From positions 1-23,575 of the forward strand of contig JAADFO010000066.1 in NCBI GenBank assembly GCA_013152815.1: a DNA stretch of 23,575 nt. Reading direction: 5' to 3'. Made by a program: the position numbers. Shown one piece after another: positions 6,001-12,000 of this stretch (positions are counted from its first letter, which is position 1; every line of letters begins with the position of its first letter). Source of the stretch: Nanobdellati archaeon. Lineage in GTDB: Archaea; Nanobdellota; Nanobdellia; Woesearchaeales; JAADFO01.

Positions 6001-9000
6001 AGTCCTGCGATGGACACGAGCCAGCCGGTCTGTATGACCGTCAGGACGGTCTGGCCGAAAAACCCTGCAGCAAGCCCCATCAGCACGAAGGAGCTGCTGA
6101 ACCCGAAGAAGAAGACAAAGGTCATCTTGGTGATGTTCTTCTTCTCCTTGAAGGTATAAGAGAAATAGGCAGGAAGGAACGGCAGGAGGCAAGGAGAGAG
6201 TATGCCCAGCATGCCTGCGACAAATGCGATGAAAAAGGAGATCTTCAGGGCAAAGTCCGCAGTGCTCCTGTTGTTGTAGTCGATTATCTTCTGCATCCCT
6301 GCAGGGAGATGGCTCTTTCCAACGGCGATGCTGCTGAATATCGCACCCAGTGTGACCAGGAGCAACAGCAGCAGGATGGTCTTTCTTCTCATCAGGTGTT
6401 GCCTCTTCTCCTTTCCCTGTTCTGTCTCCTGTTTTTCTCTATCTATCTCTCGAAACAACACAATATGGACCATGGACGAATATAAAAAAATAAATATAAA
6501 AATAAAAGATGAGAAGACCTCTCTTCAGCTGACCACCAGTTCTCCTGTCATCGAGCTATGGCCCTGGCCGCAGTAGACCGAGCAGGCGAACGGGAACGTC
6601 CCTGTCTTGTCTGCCACGAACTCGACCGTGACCGTCTTGCCGGGTTCCAGGTTCTCGTTGATGCCGAAGGCAGGCAGGTTGAATCCGTGGGTCACATCGA
6701 CGCTGGTGATGCTCAGCTTCACCCGGTCTCCTTTCTTGACCCGGATGATGTTCGGTTCAAACTTCCAGTTCCTCGCCGTCATCGTGATCTCCTTCACTCC
6801 TCCGGCGCTCCCGGTGGAAGCGGTCTGAGCAGATGCCTGCGTTTGACTGCTATCTCCCCTGCCTTTGTCGTTCGGGTCGATGATGGTGTCTGTGGCAAGA
6901 TCGCGGTAGGGCTGCTTCCCTATCTCCACTTTCCTGAAGACATAGGTACCGTCTTCTTCCACGGTCCCGACCTCTTTCCAGGCCTTCGTGAGCACCGTAT
7001 AGACCTCGGGATCGCCTTCCAGCAGGATGGTCGGCATCTTCTTGATGCTGTATCGGGAGATGAGTGCCTTGCCTTCCTCTGATGACGCATCGATGTTCCT
7101 GATGGTCGCAGGTTCGAGTCCCAACCGCTTGAGGATGGGCATGTTGAACTTCTGCGCTTCAAAGCAGCCCTGGCAGCTCTTGTCCTCAAGGACGATAAGC
7201 GTGACCTCTCCTATCATCTTTCCGGTGGCCGTATCCACGTAGGGCGGTGTCGTGCTCCTCAGGACGTGGCTTCCGTCCTTCTCCACGGTCCCCATCTGTT
7301 TCCATTGCGTCTCGGTGGCTGTCCCGTAGACTCCCATGTCTGCGGAAAGCACCAGTGAAGGGATGCTGGTTATGGCATATTTCCTGATGAACTCCTGCGC
7401 CTCAGGACCGGTCCATTCGAGTTCCTTGGTGGTACCGAGGACGATTCCGCTCTCTTTGAACTGGGCGAGCAGCTGATCGAGGTCGATGCAGGCAGCACAG
7501 GACGAATCCTTGATGATGGTCGCCTGGACTATCCCCTTTATGGTATCCGAGGCCGTATCGCTGAACGGAGGGAGAGATTTCTGATAGACCAACGCATCAT
7601 TGTCCTTGACAAAATCCCGAAAAGATACCTTGTCTGTCTCTCCGAAGACCAGGACACTCGGTATCTTCGTTATATCATACTTTCCGATAAGTTCCTTCGC
7701 TCTCTCTGAGGCCATGTCGAGCGTCTCCTCTTTGAGGATCTTGACGTTCTTGTCGGTGACCGTCGTCTTGACCTGTTCAGCATTGTTGCAGGAATCACAA
7801 CGGGAGTCGGTGATGACCACGAGAGACAGCTCCGCAGGGCGCAACGCCTCCTTCTGCTCTGTTATCATCTGATCCACGGCTGTGCTGGTGGAGCTCAGCT
7901 GGATGATGCCAAACAGTCCGATGAGCGCCGCGACTACCCCCAGCGTGATGAAGAGGGTCTGTTGCCTGTCCTGTGTCTTCTTTTTCTTTTCCATGTGCAG
8001 TCACTTCCCTGTCGCCACTTCAGCGAAGGTCAGCACCCTCCTACCATGGTCGGCAGGTCCTTTATCGAGCTTGGTACCGCTGTCGTCCTTTTGGTCCCTG
8101 AACTTGATGTCTGCTTCGCCGGCGCCTGGTCGATGACGAGGCTTTCCTTTTTGATGCTGTCCCTCAGACTGTTCAACTGCACTGCCTGCACTGCAGATAT
8201 CAGTACCAGAACTCCCAGGACGATCGCTACGATGGTCGCTTGTTTCATGGTCTTTTCCCTCCGATCTTTCTTATTGTCACTCTTTCTTGTTCATGCTTTG
8301 ATGGCTTGTGCTTGTTCTTCTTGAGGCTGGCTTCGTCATCAGCATCCGCCCACCATGCCGGGAAGGTCGGTCAGACGTGACGTGTCTCCTCCTGCCACGG
8401 TCATGCCCAGCTCGATCATGTTCTTCGGGAAGAAGAGCGTCTTCCACTGCATGACCTCTCTAAGTATCTCAGCGTCAGAATAGTCTGAATAGGCGGTGAG
8501 ATAGAGGGCCACGCTGAGGAGTGCCGGATTATGCTGGCATCCGCAGGCAGAGTTTCCGTTCTTGTCGATGCCGACGGCTTTCAGGCCGCAGCAATATTCG
8601 CAGGAGATGCCTACCGGCTTGGAAGCGAGGTTCATATATCTCTGCCAGGCAGCAGGATCCTTGCTCTGGACCTCCTGCTTGAGTCCGGGGTACATCTTTG
8701 CGAGCACAGCCAGGGAAGCCACCGGATCATCGAAGCTGACACCGAGGTCTGCACCGTATTCAGGGGTTCCGCTGGGGAACATGATGGCGATGGCATCATC
8801 AGAGGTGACGATATCCTCCACCGGGAAGACCGACGCGACGGTCTCTCCTGTGGACCTGATGGCATTGATGTCGACGCCGGACAGGTCTGCAGTACCTCCT
8901 GAACCGACTGTGCGTCCTCCTGTTTCGGCGGCAGAGCCTATCATGCTCGAGACGCTCGCGATCTGCAGCTGGTTCAACGACAGGAGGAAGACAGCAGCGA

Positions 9001-12000
9001 TCATCAGGCCGAGCAGAGGTTTGCTGAGCAGATTCTGGCTCTCCTGCCGTCGATGCGGCCGTTGTCCGGCGCCATGTCCTCGTCCGGTGTCAGTGTCATG
9101 ATGGCTGTGATGCTGTCCCTTCTGTCCGGCGGTCTTCCTGTCGGCAGACGATCCCTTTGTTTCTTTCGCATGAGCGGTCTTCTTCTTTTCATCCATTTTT
9201 CCTTTCCAACCTCCGTCCCAGACAACATACCTGTAACATACTTGTGCTGATCAATCCCTGATCCTGCTCTTGTGTCGGCTGCTCTTCCTCTCTCATCACG
9301 ACGGTTCCCCTCATGACATCCTGAACAGAACAGGCGACACAGCCACGAATCCCCGGCCGTCCGATCATCGGATATCCCCATCGCTCCAGATGATACCAGA
9401 TGCCGACGATTCTTTTCTTGTATCGTTAGATGTCCTATACCTGATATTTAAACAGGAAGAAATAATAGTGAAAGAAAAGGGAAACTATCTCATCTATCCC
9501 TCTCCTCTATCCAAGTATCCTTCTTCCGGCAGAGGTTATCTTGAGGGACTTGAACCGTCCTTTCTGCTCTATGTTGAGCAGCCCGAGCTGTTGGAGTTTC
9601 CTTATCTTTGCCCTGGTGGTCGGCTTGGTTATCCTGAACTTTGAGGTGATGTCCTTGTAGGAGACGAGACGGTTGTTCGTGTTCCCTTCGTTGATGAAGA
9701 CCAGGATGTCCCGTTCACGCGGTGCGAGGTCCACACGGCCCATGAGCTGCCTCCCGTAGAGGTCTGTGGTCTCTGTCTCCAGGACCTTGAGCTGGGCAGT
9801 ATCGACCAGATCGGGTTCCAGGGCGATGATGATGATGCATTCATTGCTGATGGCCAGGTCCCGCAGGCTGTGGATGCTCTGTATCATCTTCTCGGGGGGA
9901 TTCTCCTTGAACAGGTAGTCTATCCTGTCTATGAGCACGACGCTTTTCGGGCTCTCTCTGACGAACTGCGCTATCAGGTGATACAAGGTATCGATGTTCG
10001 TCTCTGCAGGCGCCCCGTCGACCTTCGCCTTGGTCATCCAGATGAACGAGGTCTTCTGGAGGTTATATCTCTTCTTGAGCAGATGGGGATCGTCCCTCAC
10101 TATGCCGAGCCCGGCAAACCCTTCGTTGAGACAGCCTATGAAAAGCTCGTGTGCCTGGTTCTCCTGGTCCTCCTTGATGAGATAGATGTTTCGTGGCTCG
10201 AGAGCCATGTCTGCGGCATCATACTTCCCCTTTTCTGTGGCAGAAAGGATGCCTAATTTCTTGAGGGTGATCTCTGCCTGTTCGAGCTTGGTCTGGACGC
10301 GTTGTTTGGAATGATAGAGCGAGATGAACGATACGATGGTTATTATCGAGATGAATATGATGAATATGATGCTGAACAGGTGCCTCTGCTGGACAGAAGC
10401 AAGATCGGCAGAGGCCAGGGAAAGCGGCGTGAAGATGATGAGCCTGAACTGTTCGTTGCCGATGACATTGTTCACCGCAGTGATGATGGTCTCTCCCAGA
10501 CCATCAAAGTCAGCTATGGTGTTCAGTCCGTTCTCCGGGGGAAACTCGTCTCTGATGGCCGCATAATCTGCGATGCCCTCGCTTTTCAGGAAGGTCTCTC
10601 CTGTCTCCGGATTGACCAGCAGGAAAAGGTTCCTTCCTGGCTGCACATAGGGATGCAGGTAGATGTTGTAGAGGTTCTCGATCTCGATGATGGTCATGAG
10701 CACCCCCCTGAATTCCCCCCTGAAGTCAGGATAGGGTGTGTAGGTGGTGGTCTTGAAGAGCGGGACGGCTATGATGACCTTCGGGCTCTCTCCCGGGCTC
10801 ACCACTGCCTTGATATAGGGTTCTCTCGTGTCTCTCGGTATCCTGAAATAGTCCTTGTTCTTGATGTTCAGTCCCAGGAACTCTGAAAAACGGGCTGATG
10901 AGCAGGCGACGATATCTCCGTTCTCGTCCGTCTTCAGGAGGGTGTCTGTGTTTCCCTGCGGTTGTTCAGGGACCTCTTCCTCGGCAGCGGTGCACTTCTC
11001 TTTGGTCAATCCTTCTATCTGCGGGAATTTGCTGAGGGTTATGAGCTTGTCCCTGGCCTGCAGGATGTGGTTCTCCATCCTTCCTATCGCGTGTTCTGTC
11101 TCGGTGAGCTGCTGGTCCTTGAGCTCATTTTCGAGGACCTTCTGGAATTTCGAGAAGGAAAGGAAGTTCGAGAAGATGACCAGGCCGACGATGATCAAAG
11201 AGACGAGGAGCAGGATCAGCAGCCTGGAGTCTTTTCCCATTTTTTCTGCCATGCGTGCCGGGAAATCGCTTCTGCTTATATTATACTTTCCTTTCTTTCA
11301 CTATCTTTTCCCTTTCTTTTATTCTTGTATTTAAATAAGGTTGAGGTTCTTGTTCCCATGTGAGCCTGTGCGGGGTTCCCTCTCCCTCTTTGTCCAGGGC
11401 ACGCAGGGACGGCCACATAGGTGAGAACATCATGGATGAGAATATGGTGTGATCTGGTGTGAGAACATGATGGAGAGAACAGAGTCATGAAAAAGGTCAA
11501 CATGGCCCTTTGGGGCATAGGACTGGTGGCTTTATTGGCGGTTGCCGGCTGTTCGGACGGGACATCGGGATCCCCAGGCATCAGGGATACAAGCCAGCAA
11601 GCCCAACAGACCGGTCCTGTGAAAGAAGTGTCCATCGACGCGTTCAATTGGGGCTTCAATGCGAGCCAGGTTTCGCTGAAGAAAGGGGATCGTGTAAGGC
11701 TCACGGTCACCAGCAGCTCTGGCACCCATGGTGTCTACTTTCCCAGTCTGGGTGTCTCTGTTTCCCCGGTCTCTCCGGGCCAGAAAAAGACGGTCGAGTT
11801 TGTCGTCAAGGAATCAGGACCCCTCCGGTACTTTTGCAATGTTCCCTGTGGAAAGGGCCATAGCACCATGAACGGCCAGCTCACGGTGTCTGGATGATGC
11901 ATCGATCCGTGTCCGTATCTATACACAATATATACGCAACAATGCGAGGTGAAAATCATGCTGTTCGGAATGTTCAGGAAGACCGACCCGATATGCGGGA

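Follow-up and report, generated by a model that had tools for sequence, protein, structure and literature searches.

Why should two adjacent membrane-anchored proteins of an archaeon end in the same peptide, with a cysteine as the very last residue? The question is raised by contig JAADFO010000066.1 of the Nanobdellati archaeon assembly GCA_013152815.1 (90.8% complete), positions 1-23,575 of which form the window analysed here. The answer that we favour, at a probability of roughly one half, is that the larger protein's own core binds the MVGGC tail as a peptide ligand, the terminal Cys of the tail being the sixth cysteine, in a CcdA/thioredoxin-fed, copper-associated surface system.

Two proteins with one ending

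The large protein (285 aa; 8339..9196, minus strand) has a His-rich N-terminal tail, a single transmembrane (TM) anchor, a Ser/Gly linker, an all-helical Cys-rich core (approximately residues 101-268) and a C-terminal tail. The anchor and an NQxQI juxtamembrane motif occupy residues 59-79 (8960..9022, minus strand), within a modelled helix of residues 59-90. Two motifs on the same strand mark the core: C199-E-Y-C202-C203 (8588..8602), invariant in alignment A1, and C218-G-C220-Q-H222 (8531..8545), in which C220 and H222 are invariant and C218 almost so. The translation ends in DLPGMVGGC-stop (8339..8368, minus strand). The small protein (72 aa; 8030..8248, minus strand) comprises a TM anchor with a QAxQL motif, a low-complexity tether rich in Ser, Thr and Gly, and the tail DLPTMVGGC-stop (8030..8059, minus strand). 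Both reading frames and their endings are as the first-pass annotation gave them, but its description of the proteins as otherwise unrelated is not supported: the NQxQI motif, present in 53 of 92 large proteins, and the QAxQL motif make the two anchors look related.

Synonymous codon differences between the two tails place the match at the protein level. A six-frame scan of the whole genome finds an [MQ]VGGC ending in just two of 90,432 stop-to-stop segments, and these are the pair. In a sample of 401 genomes from this DPANN phylum, the MVGGC-stop DNA pattern occurs in 88 (the reversed control pattern gives one match), each having one to four copies, almost all of them at the pair's locus. The core is present in 91 of the 401 genomes and in 86 of the 88 that bear the motif, the remaining two having no ORF of at least 30 aa with the motif ending; no other partner accompanies the motif near-universally, the next-best neighbour reaching 56 of 100 loci. 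Selenocysteine read-through at the tail was considered and rejected because the stop codons vary (TAA 34, TAG 16 and TGA 9 in 59 ORFs).

A strictly terminal position and Gly-Gly-Cys chemistry would suit a sorting or processing signal, as the first-pass annotation had proposed among its options; both tails would then be substrates of a third factor, be it a protease, a lipid transferase or a thiocarboxylation enzyme, and a shared external reader would also fit the concerted tail changes described below. The MYXO-, JDVT-, Synerg- and CGP-CTERM signals resemble the tail in being short conserved C-terminal motifs with an invariant Cys, common to different proteins. As outlined in bioRxiv 10.1101/2023.06.07.544157, however, such a motif is followed by a TM segment and an Arg-rich cluster and is associated with an Rce1-like protease, whereas the MVGGC Cys is the last residue, the anchor is N-terminal and no TM segment or basic cluster follows. 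The low copy number, nearly all at one locus, also speaks against this option, as do the failure of a search that recovered 11 of 14 controls to find an Rce1-like gene in this 90.8% complete genome and the frequency of recurrent neighbouring enzyme families, none of which exceeds 56 of 100 loci. A third factor is very unlikely.

Conservation of the pair

The recurrence of the pair that was reported earlier is confirmed: large and small ORFs occur together in 29 of the 30 closest loci and in 95 of 100 wider loci from related genomes, with no small gene visible in the other five. Four loci stand outside the 100-locus counts, namely L031-L033 and L038, in which the ORF caller gives no start though the frame is open and ends in MVGGC. 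A scan of named genomes, queried with one protein, returned three loci only.

Relatives of the large protein form 851 clusters at E<=1e-3. Among the 120 listed, all end in MVGGC and contain CxxCC, and 116 contain CGCQH, which reproduces the earlier count of 120 of 120 endings; this figure nevertheless reflects the selection of top hits, and the tail is not invariant. Thirteen of the 102 complete large ORFs in the loci are tail-less, and among 150 listed representatives at 50% identity, some of them fragments, the ending is [MQ]VGGC in 100, GGC in 111 and Cys in 125. Likewise, of the four residues first described as invariant, G283 and C285 are so in alignment A1, and V282 and G284 nearly so. 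Counted from P257 to the C-terminus, the linker is between 24 and 71 aa long among relatives. Of 149 aligned relatives, 29 have Gln in place of the tail Met, a substitution that disfavours Met as a Cu(I) ligand; of the 'Met/Cys metal tip' suggested at first, the Met is doubtful and the terminal Cys is kept as a ligand in the reading favoured here.

The small protein has 307 relatives among 8000 candidates scored, and 20 of 108 small proteins carry Met/His motifs. Longer fused forms are absent from 8000 candidates of 582-2000 aa, which is weak evidence.

Cysteine count, tail loss and tail variants

The number of cysteines follows the tail exactly. From CxxCC onward, the tailed large proteins have six Cys (89 of 89) and the tail-less ones five (13 of 13), and all 13 of the latter keep the five core Cys together with H222, R186, E247, W251 and P257. 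At 12 of these 13 loci a small MVGGC gene is present. A tree built from 98 of the 102 rows (L077, L089, L093 and L120 are absent) places at least three tail losses or gains on well-supported branches.

The tails of the two genes also change together. In 85 large/small pairs, all five non-canonical small tails equal that of the large neighbour (four QVGGC, one MAGAC), and three pairs are discordant, with a deviant large tail and a canonical small one. The Gln codons differ between partners in three of the four QVGGC pairs. Gene-to-gene copying explains part of the concerted change, since the tail DNA is near-identical in two pairs (32/33 nt and, in the MAGAC pair, 18/18 nt) and identity at third positions is higher within loci (0.46) than between them (0.36). 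Between the Met/Gln position and the core columns there is no clear co-variation. In a distant subfamily (four loci), a GCG arm and a Met/His motif resembling that of the small proteins are fused ahead of a core that has lost C199 and R186, and the total is still six Cys.

Tail loss, concerted variants, the fused form and the models described below make a contact between the two proteins, which the first-pass annotation had raised as a caveat to its own proposal, the best-supported reading of the motif. The strict Cys count can also be read structurally. Six extracellular Cys fit three stable disulfides equally well, and the tail would then be a fold element, swappable in trans, that covalently staples the two proteins together as a complex in the membrane; the order of the tail in the AlphaFold2 (AF2) model is in keeping with this, and the anchor motif common to both proteins suggests co-assembly. 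Linkage to a reducing pathway (CcdA and the thioredoxin repeat) suggests free thiols instead, and such a latch leaves the second tail in the 85 pairs and the Met/His motifs unexplained. We regard it as unlikely.

Thiol and copper genes around the pair

Two further genes of the minus strand point to redox chemistry: 6525..7994 encodes a membrane-anchored protein in which three thioredoxin-like repeats, with three CxxC, are joined to a cupredoxin that has a CuA motif (Pfam Thioredoxin_2/3, Cupredoxin_1 and COX2; NCBIfam matches below cut-off), and 5421..6473 a transmembrane electron carrier of the CcdA/DsbD type in which both of the catalytic Cys motifs are present (PF02683, E 4.5e-15). On the plus strand, a divergent copper-gene cluster begins with a second, lipoprotein-like cupredoxin (11487..11897), recognised by family searches. 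The same strand encodes a DUF411 protein (CopG-type copper protein; 13110..13601; PF04214, E 1.6e-25; cf. PMC13707694), an HCPLC-motif membrane protein that has no annotation (13611..14144) and neighbours the pair in 30 of 100 loci, and a CopA-type P1B ATPase with YHS and HMA domains (20071..22722; CPC and DKTGT motifs in the translation). A promoter and terminator scan gave signals at or below chance.

The extracytoplasmic thiol/copper context claimed at first is supported across loci: of 100, 77 have a thiol-redox neighbour and 49 a copper-type one (DUF411/CopG, cupredoxin or CopA); at least one of the two kinds is found in 91 and neither in nine. The thioredoxin repeat is present in 56 loci and CcdA in 45. 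HCPLC protein and CcdA are nearly exclusive of each other, and the subfamily adjacent to DUF411/HCPLC rarely has a thioredoxin repeat (3/32) or CcdA (4/32) nearby. Two of the neighbours named earlier stand in part. The thioredoxin-repeat/CuA fusion is present here, but by a motif test it occurs in one locus, and elsewhere the genes are separate; for VKOR, two of 13 screened candidate ORFs were confirmed and the other 11 were not, which is not a full count. By its domains, the fusion protein is likely to be a reductant relay and possibly a copper client.

The fusion in this window could suggest that the pair is a dedicated CuA-assembly chaperone, a Sco analogue serving the neighbouring cupredoxin. 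This genome has no Sco above the Pfam cut-off, and a cupredoxin like that of 6525..7994 is found in 65 of 91 core-positive and 85 of 310 core-negative genomes, counts in which kin are not independent. However, the cupredoxin occurs without the core in those 85 genomes and the core without the cupredoxin in 26, and the CuA motif lies inside the locus in only 15 of 100; the chance that the pair has this role is slim. An actual Sco/SenC chaperone was rejected: there is no Pfam match, and the model is helical with CxxCC and CxCxH instead of a thioredoxin fold with CxxxC and His.

Predicted structure and fold comparison

The AF2 model of the core (pLDDT 96.6, pTM 0.93) is all-helical, and the tail is ordered in cis, its last two blocks having pLDDT 93 and 86. 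For a complex of the tail-less core with the C-terminal 37 residues of the small protein, the predicted score is 0.52 against 0.08 for the best control, the runs share at least 80% of contacts and the partner has pLDDT of at least 51. This lends weak support to docking in trans: 116 of 157 solved pairs attain the mark, as do 2 of 215 mismatched ones, and scores up to 0.60, which include 18 of the solved pairs and both mismatches, fall in a range more often wrong than right. The predicted docking may merely mirror the tail in cis.

Neither MVGGC protein has a family in Pfam or NCBIfam, Foldseek gives no match at E<=0.001 against the PDB and viral models, and matches in the Atlas are to unnamed clusters only. 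Sequence comparison with solved structures gives weak matches, including DsbA at E 0.19. VIA-align returns no Z>=5, which is insufficient to call the fold new. Its best match for the core is CcmH (Z 4.2, rmsd 3.5, 75/82 aligned, 19% identity), below the tool's stated noise level and tied with KH domains at Z 4.0. With hhalign, the core runs in register with a seven-sequence CcmH profile over 59 columns, C199xxC202 aligning weakly with the CcmH CxxC (non-significant: probability 9.9%, E 0.0032); against E. coli CcmH alone the probability is 1.0%.

The likeness to the CcmH/CcmL periplasmic domain (PF03918; PDB 2hl7), a membrane-anchored, outward-facing three-helix bundle with a CxxC after its first helix, has non-significant scores, and the core differs in having three more Cys, an invariant His and the terminal-Cys tail. 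The PF03918 HMM matches neither the query nor the listed families of its 149 members, and a CcmH family search of the genome, which recovered 4 of 14 controls, found nothing. The 32 recurrent neighbour representatives and the scanned window genes include no cytochrome c maturation gene, the CcdA/DsbD TM domain excepted. For the PCYCGC family there was no genome match, but that search recovered no control either and is uninformative.

Alternatively, the pair may form a metal-free thiol-disulfide relay, with a CcmH-like, non-thioredoxin oxidoreductase core (C199xxC202) and the terminal Cys as a tethered resolving or shuttling thiol, repairing copper-damaged surface proteins much as in Salmonella Scs. 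The weak CcmH match, the predominance of redox neighbours and the fusion of one distant relative to an FKBP domain agree with such a relay. The KH tie, the broken CxxC of the distant subfamily without C199 and the scarcity of thioredoxin repeats and CcdA on the DUF411/HCPLC side do not, and the relay is a tentative alternative.

Relation to known systems

In Salmonella Scs (ScsB/ScsC/ScsD), as presented in PMC10907172, a DsbD-family membrane reductant and thioredoxin-fold partners tie copper to envelope thiol redox. The present locus is Scs-like in that a CcdA-type TM domain and a triple-thioredoxin protein share one gene run; the MVGGC proteins themselves show no match to an Scs family and do not have a thioredoxin fold. 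CopG (DUF411) offers an analogy for the Cys/His site of the core, but it is a neighbour and not a homologue, the core having no PF04214 match.

For the tail, the closest parallels are C-terminal Cys arms. Mammalian thioredoxin reductase (GCUG), MerA (a terminal Cys pair) and SoxY (GGCGG) carry Gly-rich ends whose reactive Cys or Sec visits an active site. The MVGGC tail is likewise a Gly-rich C-terminal segment with a conserved Cys; it differs in its single terminal Cys with a free carboxylate, in having no Sec, and in that the arm is also encoded on its own, as a mini-protein with a membrane anchor. No flavoprotein or Sox gene is found among the recurrent neighbours. A ubiquitin-like sulfur carrier with C-terminal Gly-Gly was rejected: no beta-grasp is present, the core model being all-helical and the small protein a TM segment plus low-complexity tether.

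A tail proposed to complete the site

In the favoured reading, the core would be an outward-facing helical domain with five Cys and one His, and the terminal Cys of the tail would complete a six-cysteine site. The tail would be supplied in cis, by the large protein's own end, or in trans by the small protein, which would in effect be an anchor, a tether and a tail. Electrons from the cytoplasm would pass through CcdA to the triple-thioredoxin protein and keep the core and tail thiols reduced, and we infer that Cu(I) is the most likely cargo: thiolates at the cell surface would bind it or pass it on, and the small protein would serve as an exchangeable arm. Copper is favoured by the 49 loci with a copper-type neighbour, by the Met/His motifs of some small proteins and by the higher frequency of the cupredoxin in core-positive genomes. 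Thiol neighbours outnumber copper ones, and this counts against copper as the cargo. More specifically, and as a possibility only, the pair may be a novel surface device for copper. A fold that is new, or else strongly diverged, would hold a multi-Cys Cu(I) site, and a membrane-tethered mini-protein would supply the final ligand, an exchangeable Cys at its C-terminus through which the site is loaded, unloaded or gated; the arm would be provided in cis, in trans or fused ahead of the core.

Significance

In the libraries and literature searched, no family, structure or description exists for either protein; the literature searches gave nothing relevant on the pair or its motifs, though subscription papers or supplements could list these genes. 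If the CuA domain here belongs to the same family, the pair offers a context for the CuA-only 'nosZ-like' DPANN proteins, for which PMC10936187 reports no significant complementation of a nosZ mutant. With cis, trans and fused versions occurring naturally, a soluble domain of 170 residues and a synthetic decapeptide would allow the mechanism to be tested cheaply. The pair bears on how wall-less, minimal archaea protect their surface thiols and manage copper.

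A pair of proteins with one C-terminal tail

The MVGGC pair is real, widespread and, within the literature and libraries searched, undescribed. The first-pass annotation had placed it at 8339-9196 (large protein, 285 residues) and 8030-8248 (small protein, 72 residues), and the DNA and its translation bear out both ORFs, on the minus strand, and both tails, DLPGMVGGC and DLPTMVGGC respectively. Across all six frames of the 1.49 Mb genome, 90,432 segments in total, these two ORFs alone end in [MQ]VGGC. Their tail codons differ at synonymous sites, and all three stop codons are used after the tail by 59 such ORFs from 30 loci, which argues for conservation at the level of the protein; the varying stop codon also rules out Sec read-through at the tail. 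Motif and keyword searches of the literature, with supplements and subscription papers outside their reach, returned no description of the pair.

The terminal motif had been taken as invariant. This holds for all 120 listed relatives of the large protein, out of 851 at 90% clustering, but not for the more distant ones: of the 254 representatives that an exhaustive search gives at 50% clustering, 150 are listed, and [MQ]VGGC ends only 100 of these, GGC 111 and Cys 125, the remainder including fragments. Named relatives are for the most part Woesearchaeota or Nanoarchaeota. The family may range more widely than DPANN, since source labels include Hydrothermarchaeaceae, Desulfobacterales and one Methanosarcinales-labelled contig, although these could be binning errors.

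The large protein begins with a His-rich N-tail; a single TM helix anchors it, and a linker then leads to a helical core. Eight residues are invariant in 149 aligned sequences (C199, C202, C203, C220, H222, P257, G283 and C285), and between P257 and the C-terminus the length ranges from 24 to 71 residues, with the final five constant among the aligned relatives. The small protein has a TM helix, a low-complexity tether and the tail. The two had been described as otherwise unrelated, yet their anchors look related: hhalign aligns them over 35 columns with a probability of 95.6% (E 1.2e-8), a type of score that TM helices inflate, and the TM helix is followed by a juxtamembrane motif, [NQ]xx[QE][ILV], in 85 of the 107 small proteins and 53 of the 92 large ones, a motif that only 2 of 95 single-TM ORFs taken from this genome as background share. 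The small protein would amount to the large protein minus its core. The single N-terminal anchor and the neighbouring genes suggest that the C-terminus faces outward, the charge bias being slight.

Variations on this layout occur. Three distinct small MVGGC genes lie in tandem behind one large gene at L060:6061-6844(+), and a 50-residue lipoprotein-like ORF ending in PVGGGC lies immediately 3' of the large gene at L032:6695-6847(+). Large proteins are also found fused to a GCPxCG membrane domain (relatives P0122, P0127, P0128, P0131 and P0136), an FKBP domain (P0251), a zinc ribbon (P0078) and, by eye, a segment recalling window 12603-13091 (P0268).

Predicted structure of the core

The AF2 model of the whole large protein has a pLDDT of 84.3; for residues 101-285 this rises to 96.6, with a pTM of 0.93 and an ordered tail. 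It is improbable that this tail acts as a structural latch. Foldseek found no match to the model. The top VIA-align match of the core is CcmH (2hl7; Z 4.2, rmsd 3.5, 75 aligned, 19% identity), which ties with KH domains and lies below the stated noise level of the tool. A small CcmH profile brings the helix, the CxxC and the SDxEI helix into register at a probability of just 9.9%. Kinship with CcmH is a lead, not a membership.

The core as probable reader of the tail

Of 401 genomes, 91 have the core, 88 the MVGGC-stop pattern and 86 both. The five core-only genomes bear variant tails, and in the two motif-only genomes no ORF of at least 30 residues ends in the motif, of which a genome carries one to four copies. 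Of 100 loci, 95 include the small gene, 56 the Trx repeat (a triple thioredoxin-like protein), 45 CcdA, 31 a cupredoxin and 23 DUF411; no third gene comes near the constancy of the core beside the motif.

The tail is absent from 13 of 102 large proteins, with at least three changes on starred tree branches. All 13 retain five Cys, H222, R186, E247, W251 and P257, and K252 is replaced by Tyr in eight. A small MVGGC gene occupies the locus in 12 cases, the thirteenth sitting 776 bases from a contig end. In three genomes (G166, G180 and G193) the sole core found is tail-less and the sole motif is on the small gene. Tails also vary in concert: among 85 large/small pairs, 77 are MVGGC/MVGGC, four QVGGC/QVGGC, one MAGAC/MAGAC and three discordant, the small tail being canonical in these three. 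Both selection and copying act here, because the Q codons differ in three QVGGC pairs and the tail DNA is near-identical in two pairs.

A distant subfamily combines both parts in a single chain (L138:5049-5627, L139:25-426, L140:5005-5562 and L141:5042-5605). A Met/His motif and an arm-like (V)GGCG or GCG segment precede a core that is without C199 and R186 and ends in TGGC or TGAC, giving six Cys again; the genes adjoin HCPLC and TM-HTH genes. Modelling the core, shorn of its tail, in complex with the last 37 residues of the small protein gave a score of 0.52, the best control reaching 0.08; at least 80% of contacts agree between runs and partner pLDDT is at least 51. This is weak support: with scores of 0.60 or less, 18 of the 157 solved complexes passed, and so did the only 2 mismatched pairs (among 215) that passed at all.

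Taken together, co-occurrence, tail-less forms, concerted variants, the fused subfamily and the complex prediction indicate that the core probably reads the tail, whether it comes in cis or in trans. That the tail is instead an external processing signal is highly unlikely.

A thiol and copper neighbourhood

The pair very likely belongs to a thiol/copper system. Neighbours in the 100 loci are thiol-redox genes in 77, copper-type genes in 49 and neither in nine. One operon type, also present in the window, runs large-small-Trx repeat-(cupredoxin)-CcdA; the other runs TM-HTH regulator-large-small-DUF411-HCPLC protein and has CopA or YHS genes close by. The window carries both gene sets, DUF411 and CopA lying on the opposite strand. 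A metal-free thiol relay is a possible but rather unlikely explanation of the pair.

The unannotated HCPLC membrane protein (13611-14144, plus strand) bears its motif directly behind a signal-like segment. Of the 100 loci, 30 have it, and it and CcdA almost exclude each other, the two occurring together in four loci compared with 13.5 expected if independent; it is possibly a non-homologous transmembrane electron or copper carrier.

CuA-motif cupredoxin domains lie at 6525-6830 (minus) and 11487-11897 (plus). Their best NCBIfam matches are NosZ models, below cut-off, and they are possibly identical with the 'DPANN nosZ-like' proteins of PMC10936187. Relatives occur in 150 of the 401 genomes; they are present in 71% of those with the core and in 27% of those lacking it, kin being non-independent; the association is an enrichment, not a dependence. 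A dedicated CuA chaperone is the least probable role for the pair.

A copper-resistance-like island extends over 11487-22722 (plus) with the cupredoxin, a YHS-like peptide, DUF411, DUF5676 and CopA. Several of its proteins, which also recur in related loci, match no Pfam family; it includes a protein ending in CCKEW (14161-14697), a Cys-rich protein (14819-15220) and a Met/His-rich protein (15263-15958), all on the plus strand.

A Cache-like sensor, DUF835 and winged-helix protein (9507-11252, minus) lies immediately upstream of the pair, an arrangement seen in 10 of 100 loci. In 49 loci the large gene has a TM-plus-winged-helix gene near it, and a BlaI/CopY-family repressor with a BlaR-like peptidase lies divergently upstream of the large gene in about 18 (L034-L046, L114, L115, L118 and others).

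A proposed detachable cysteine arm

The best reading, with a probability of about one half, is that the terminal Cys of the tail would supply the sixth thiol of the site in the core. CcdA and the Trx repeat would hold this site in the reduced state, its cargo would probably be Cu(I), and the small protein would act as an exchangeable arm. The Met of the tail probably fills a pocket rather than serving as a ligand, because Gln takes its place in 29 of 149 sequences. It is a guess that R186, conserved yet lost in the fused subfamily, holds the terminal carboxylate.

TrxR, MerA and SoxY have C-terminal cysteine arms, and by analogy the MVGGC tail may work alike. Its setting appears to resemble Scs, a copper/thiol module (PMC10907172). 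CopG is reported to have a copper cluster (as cited in PMC13707694). Compared with known families, the pair falls outside the selenoprotein arms, Sco, the ubiquitin-like carriers and, by the layout of its motif, the CTERM sorting signals (10.1101/2023.06.07.544157). As predicted from sequence, the pair would belong to an extracytoplasmic system for thiols and copper whose cysteine arm would, unusually, be detachable.
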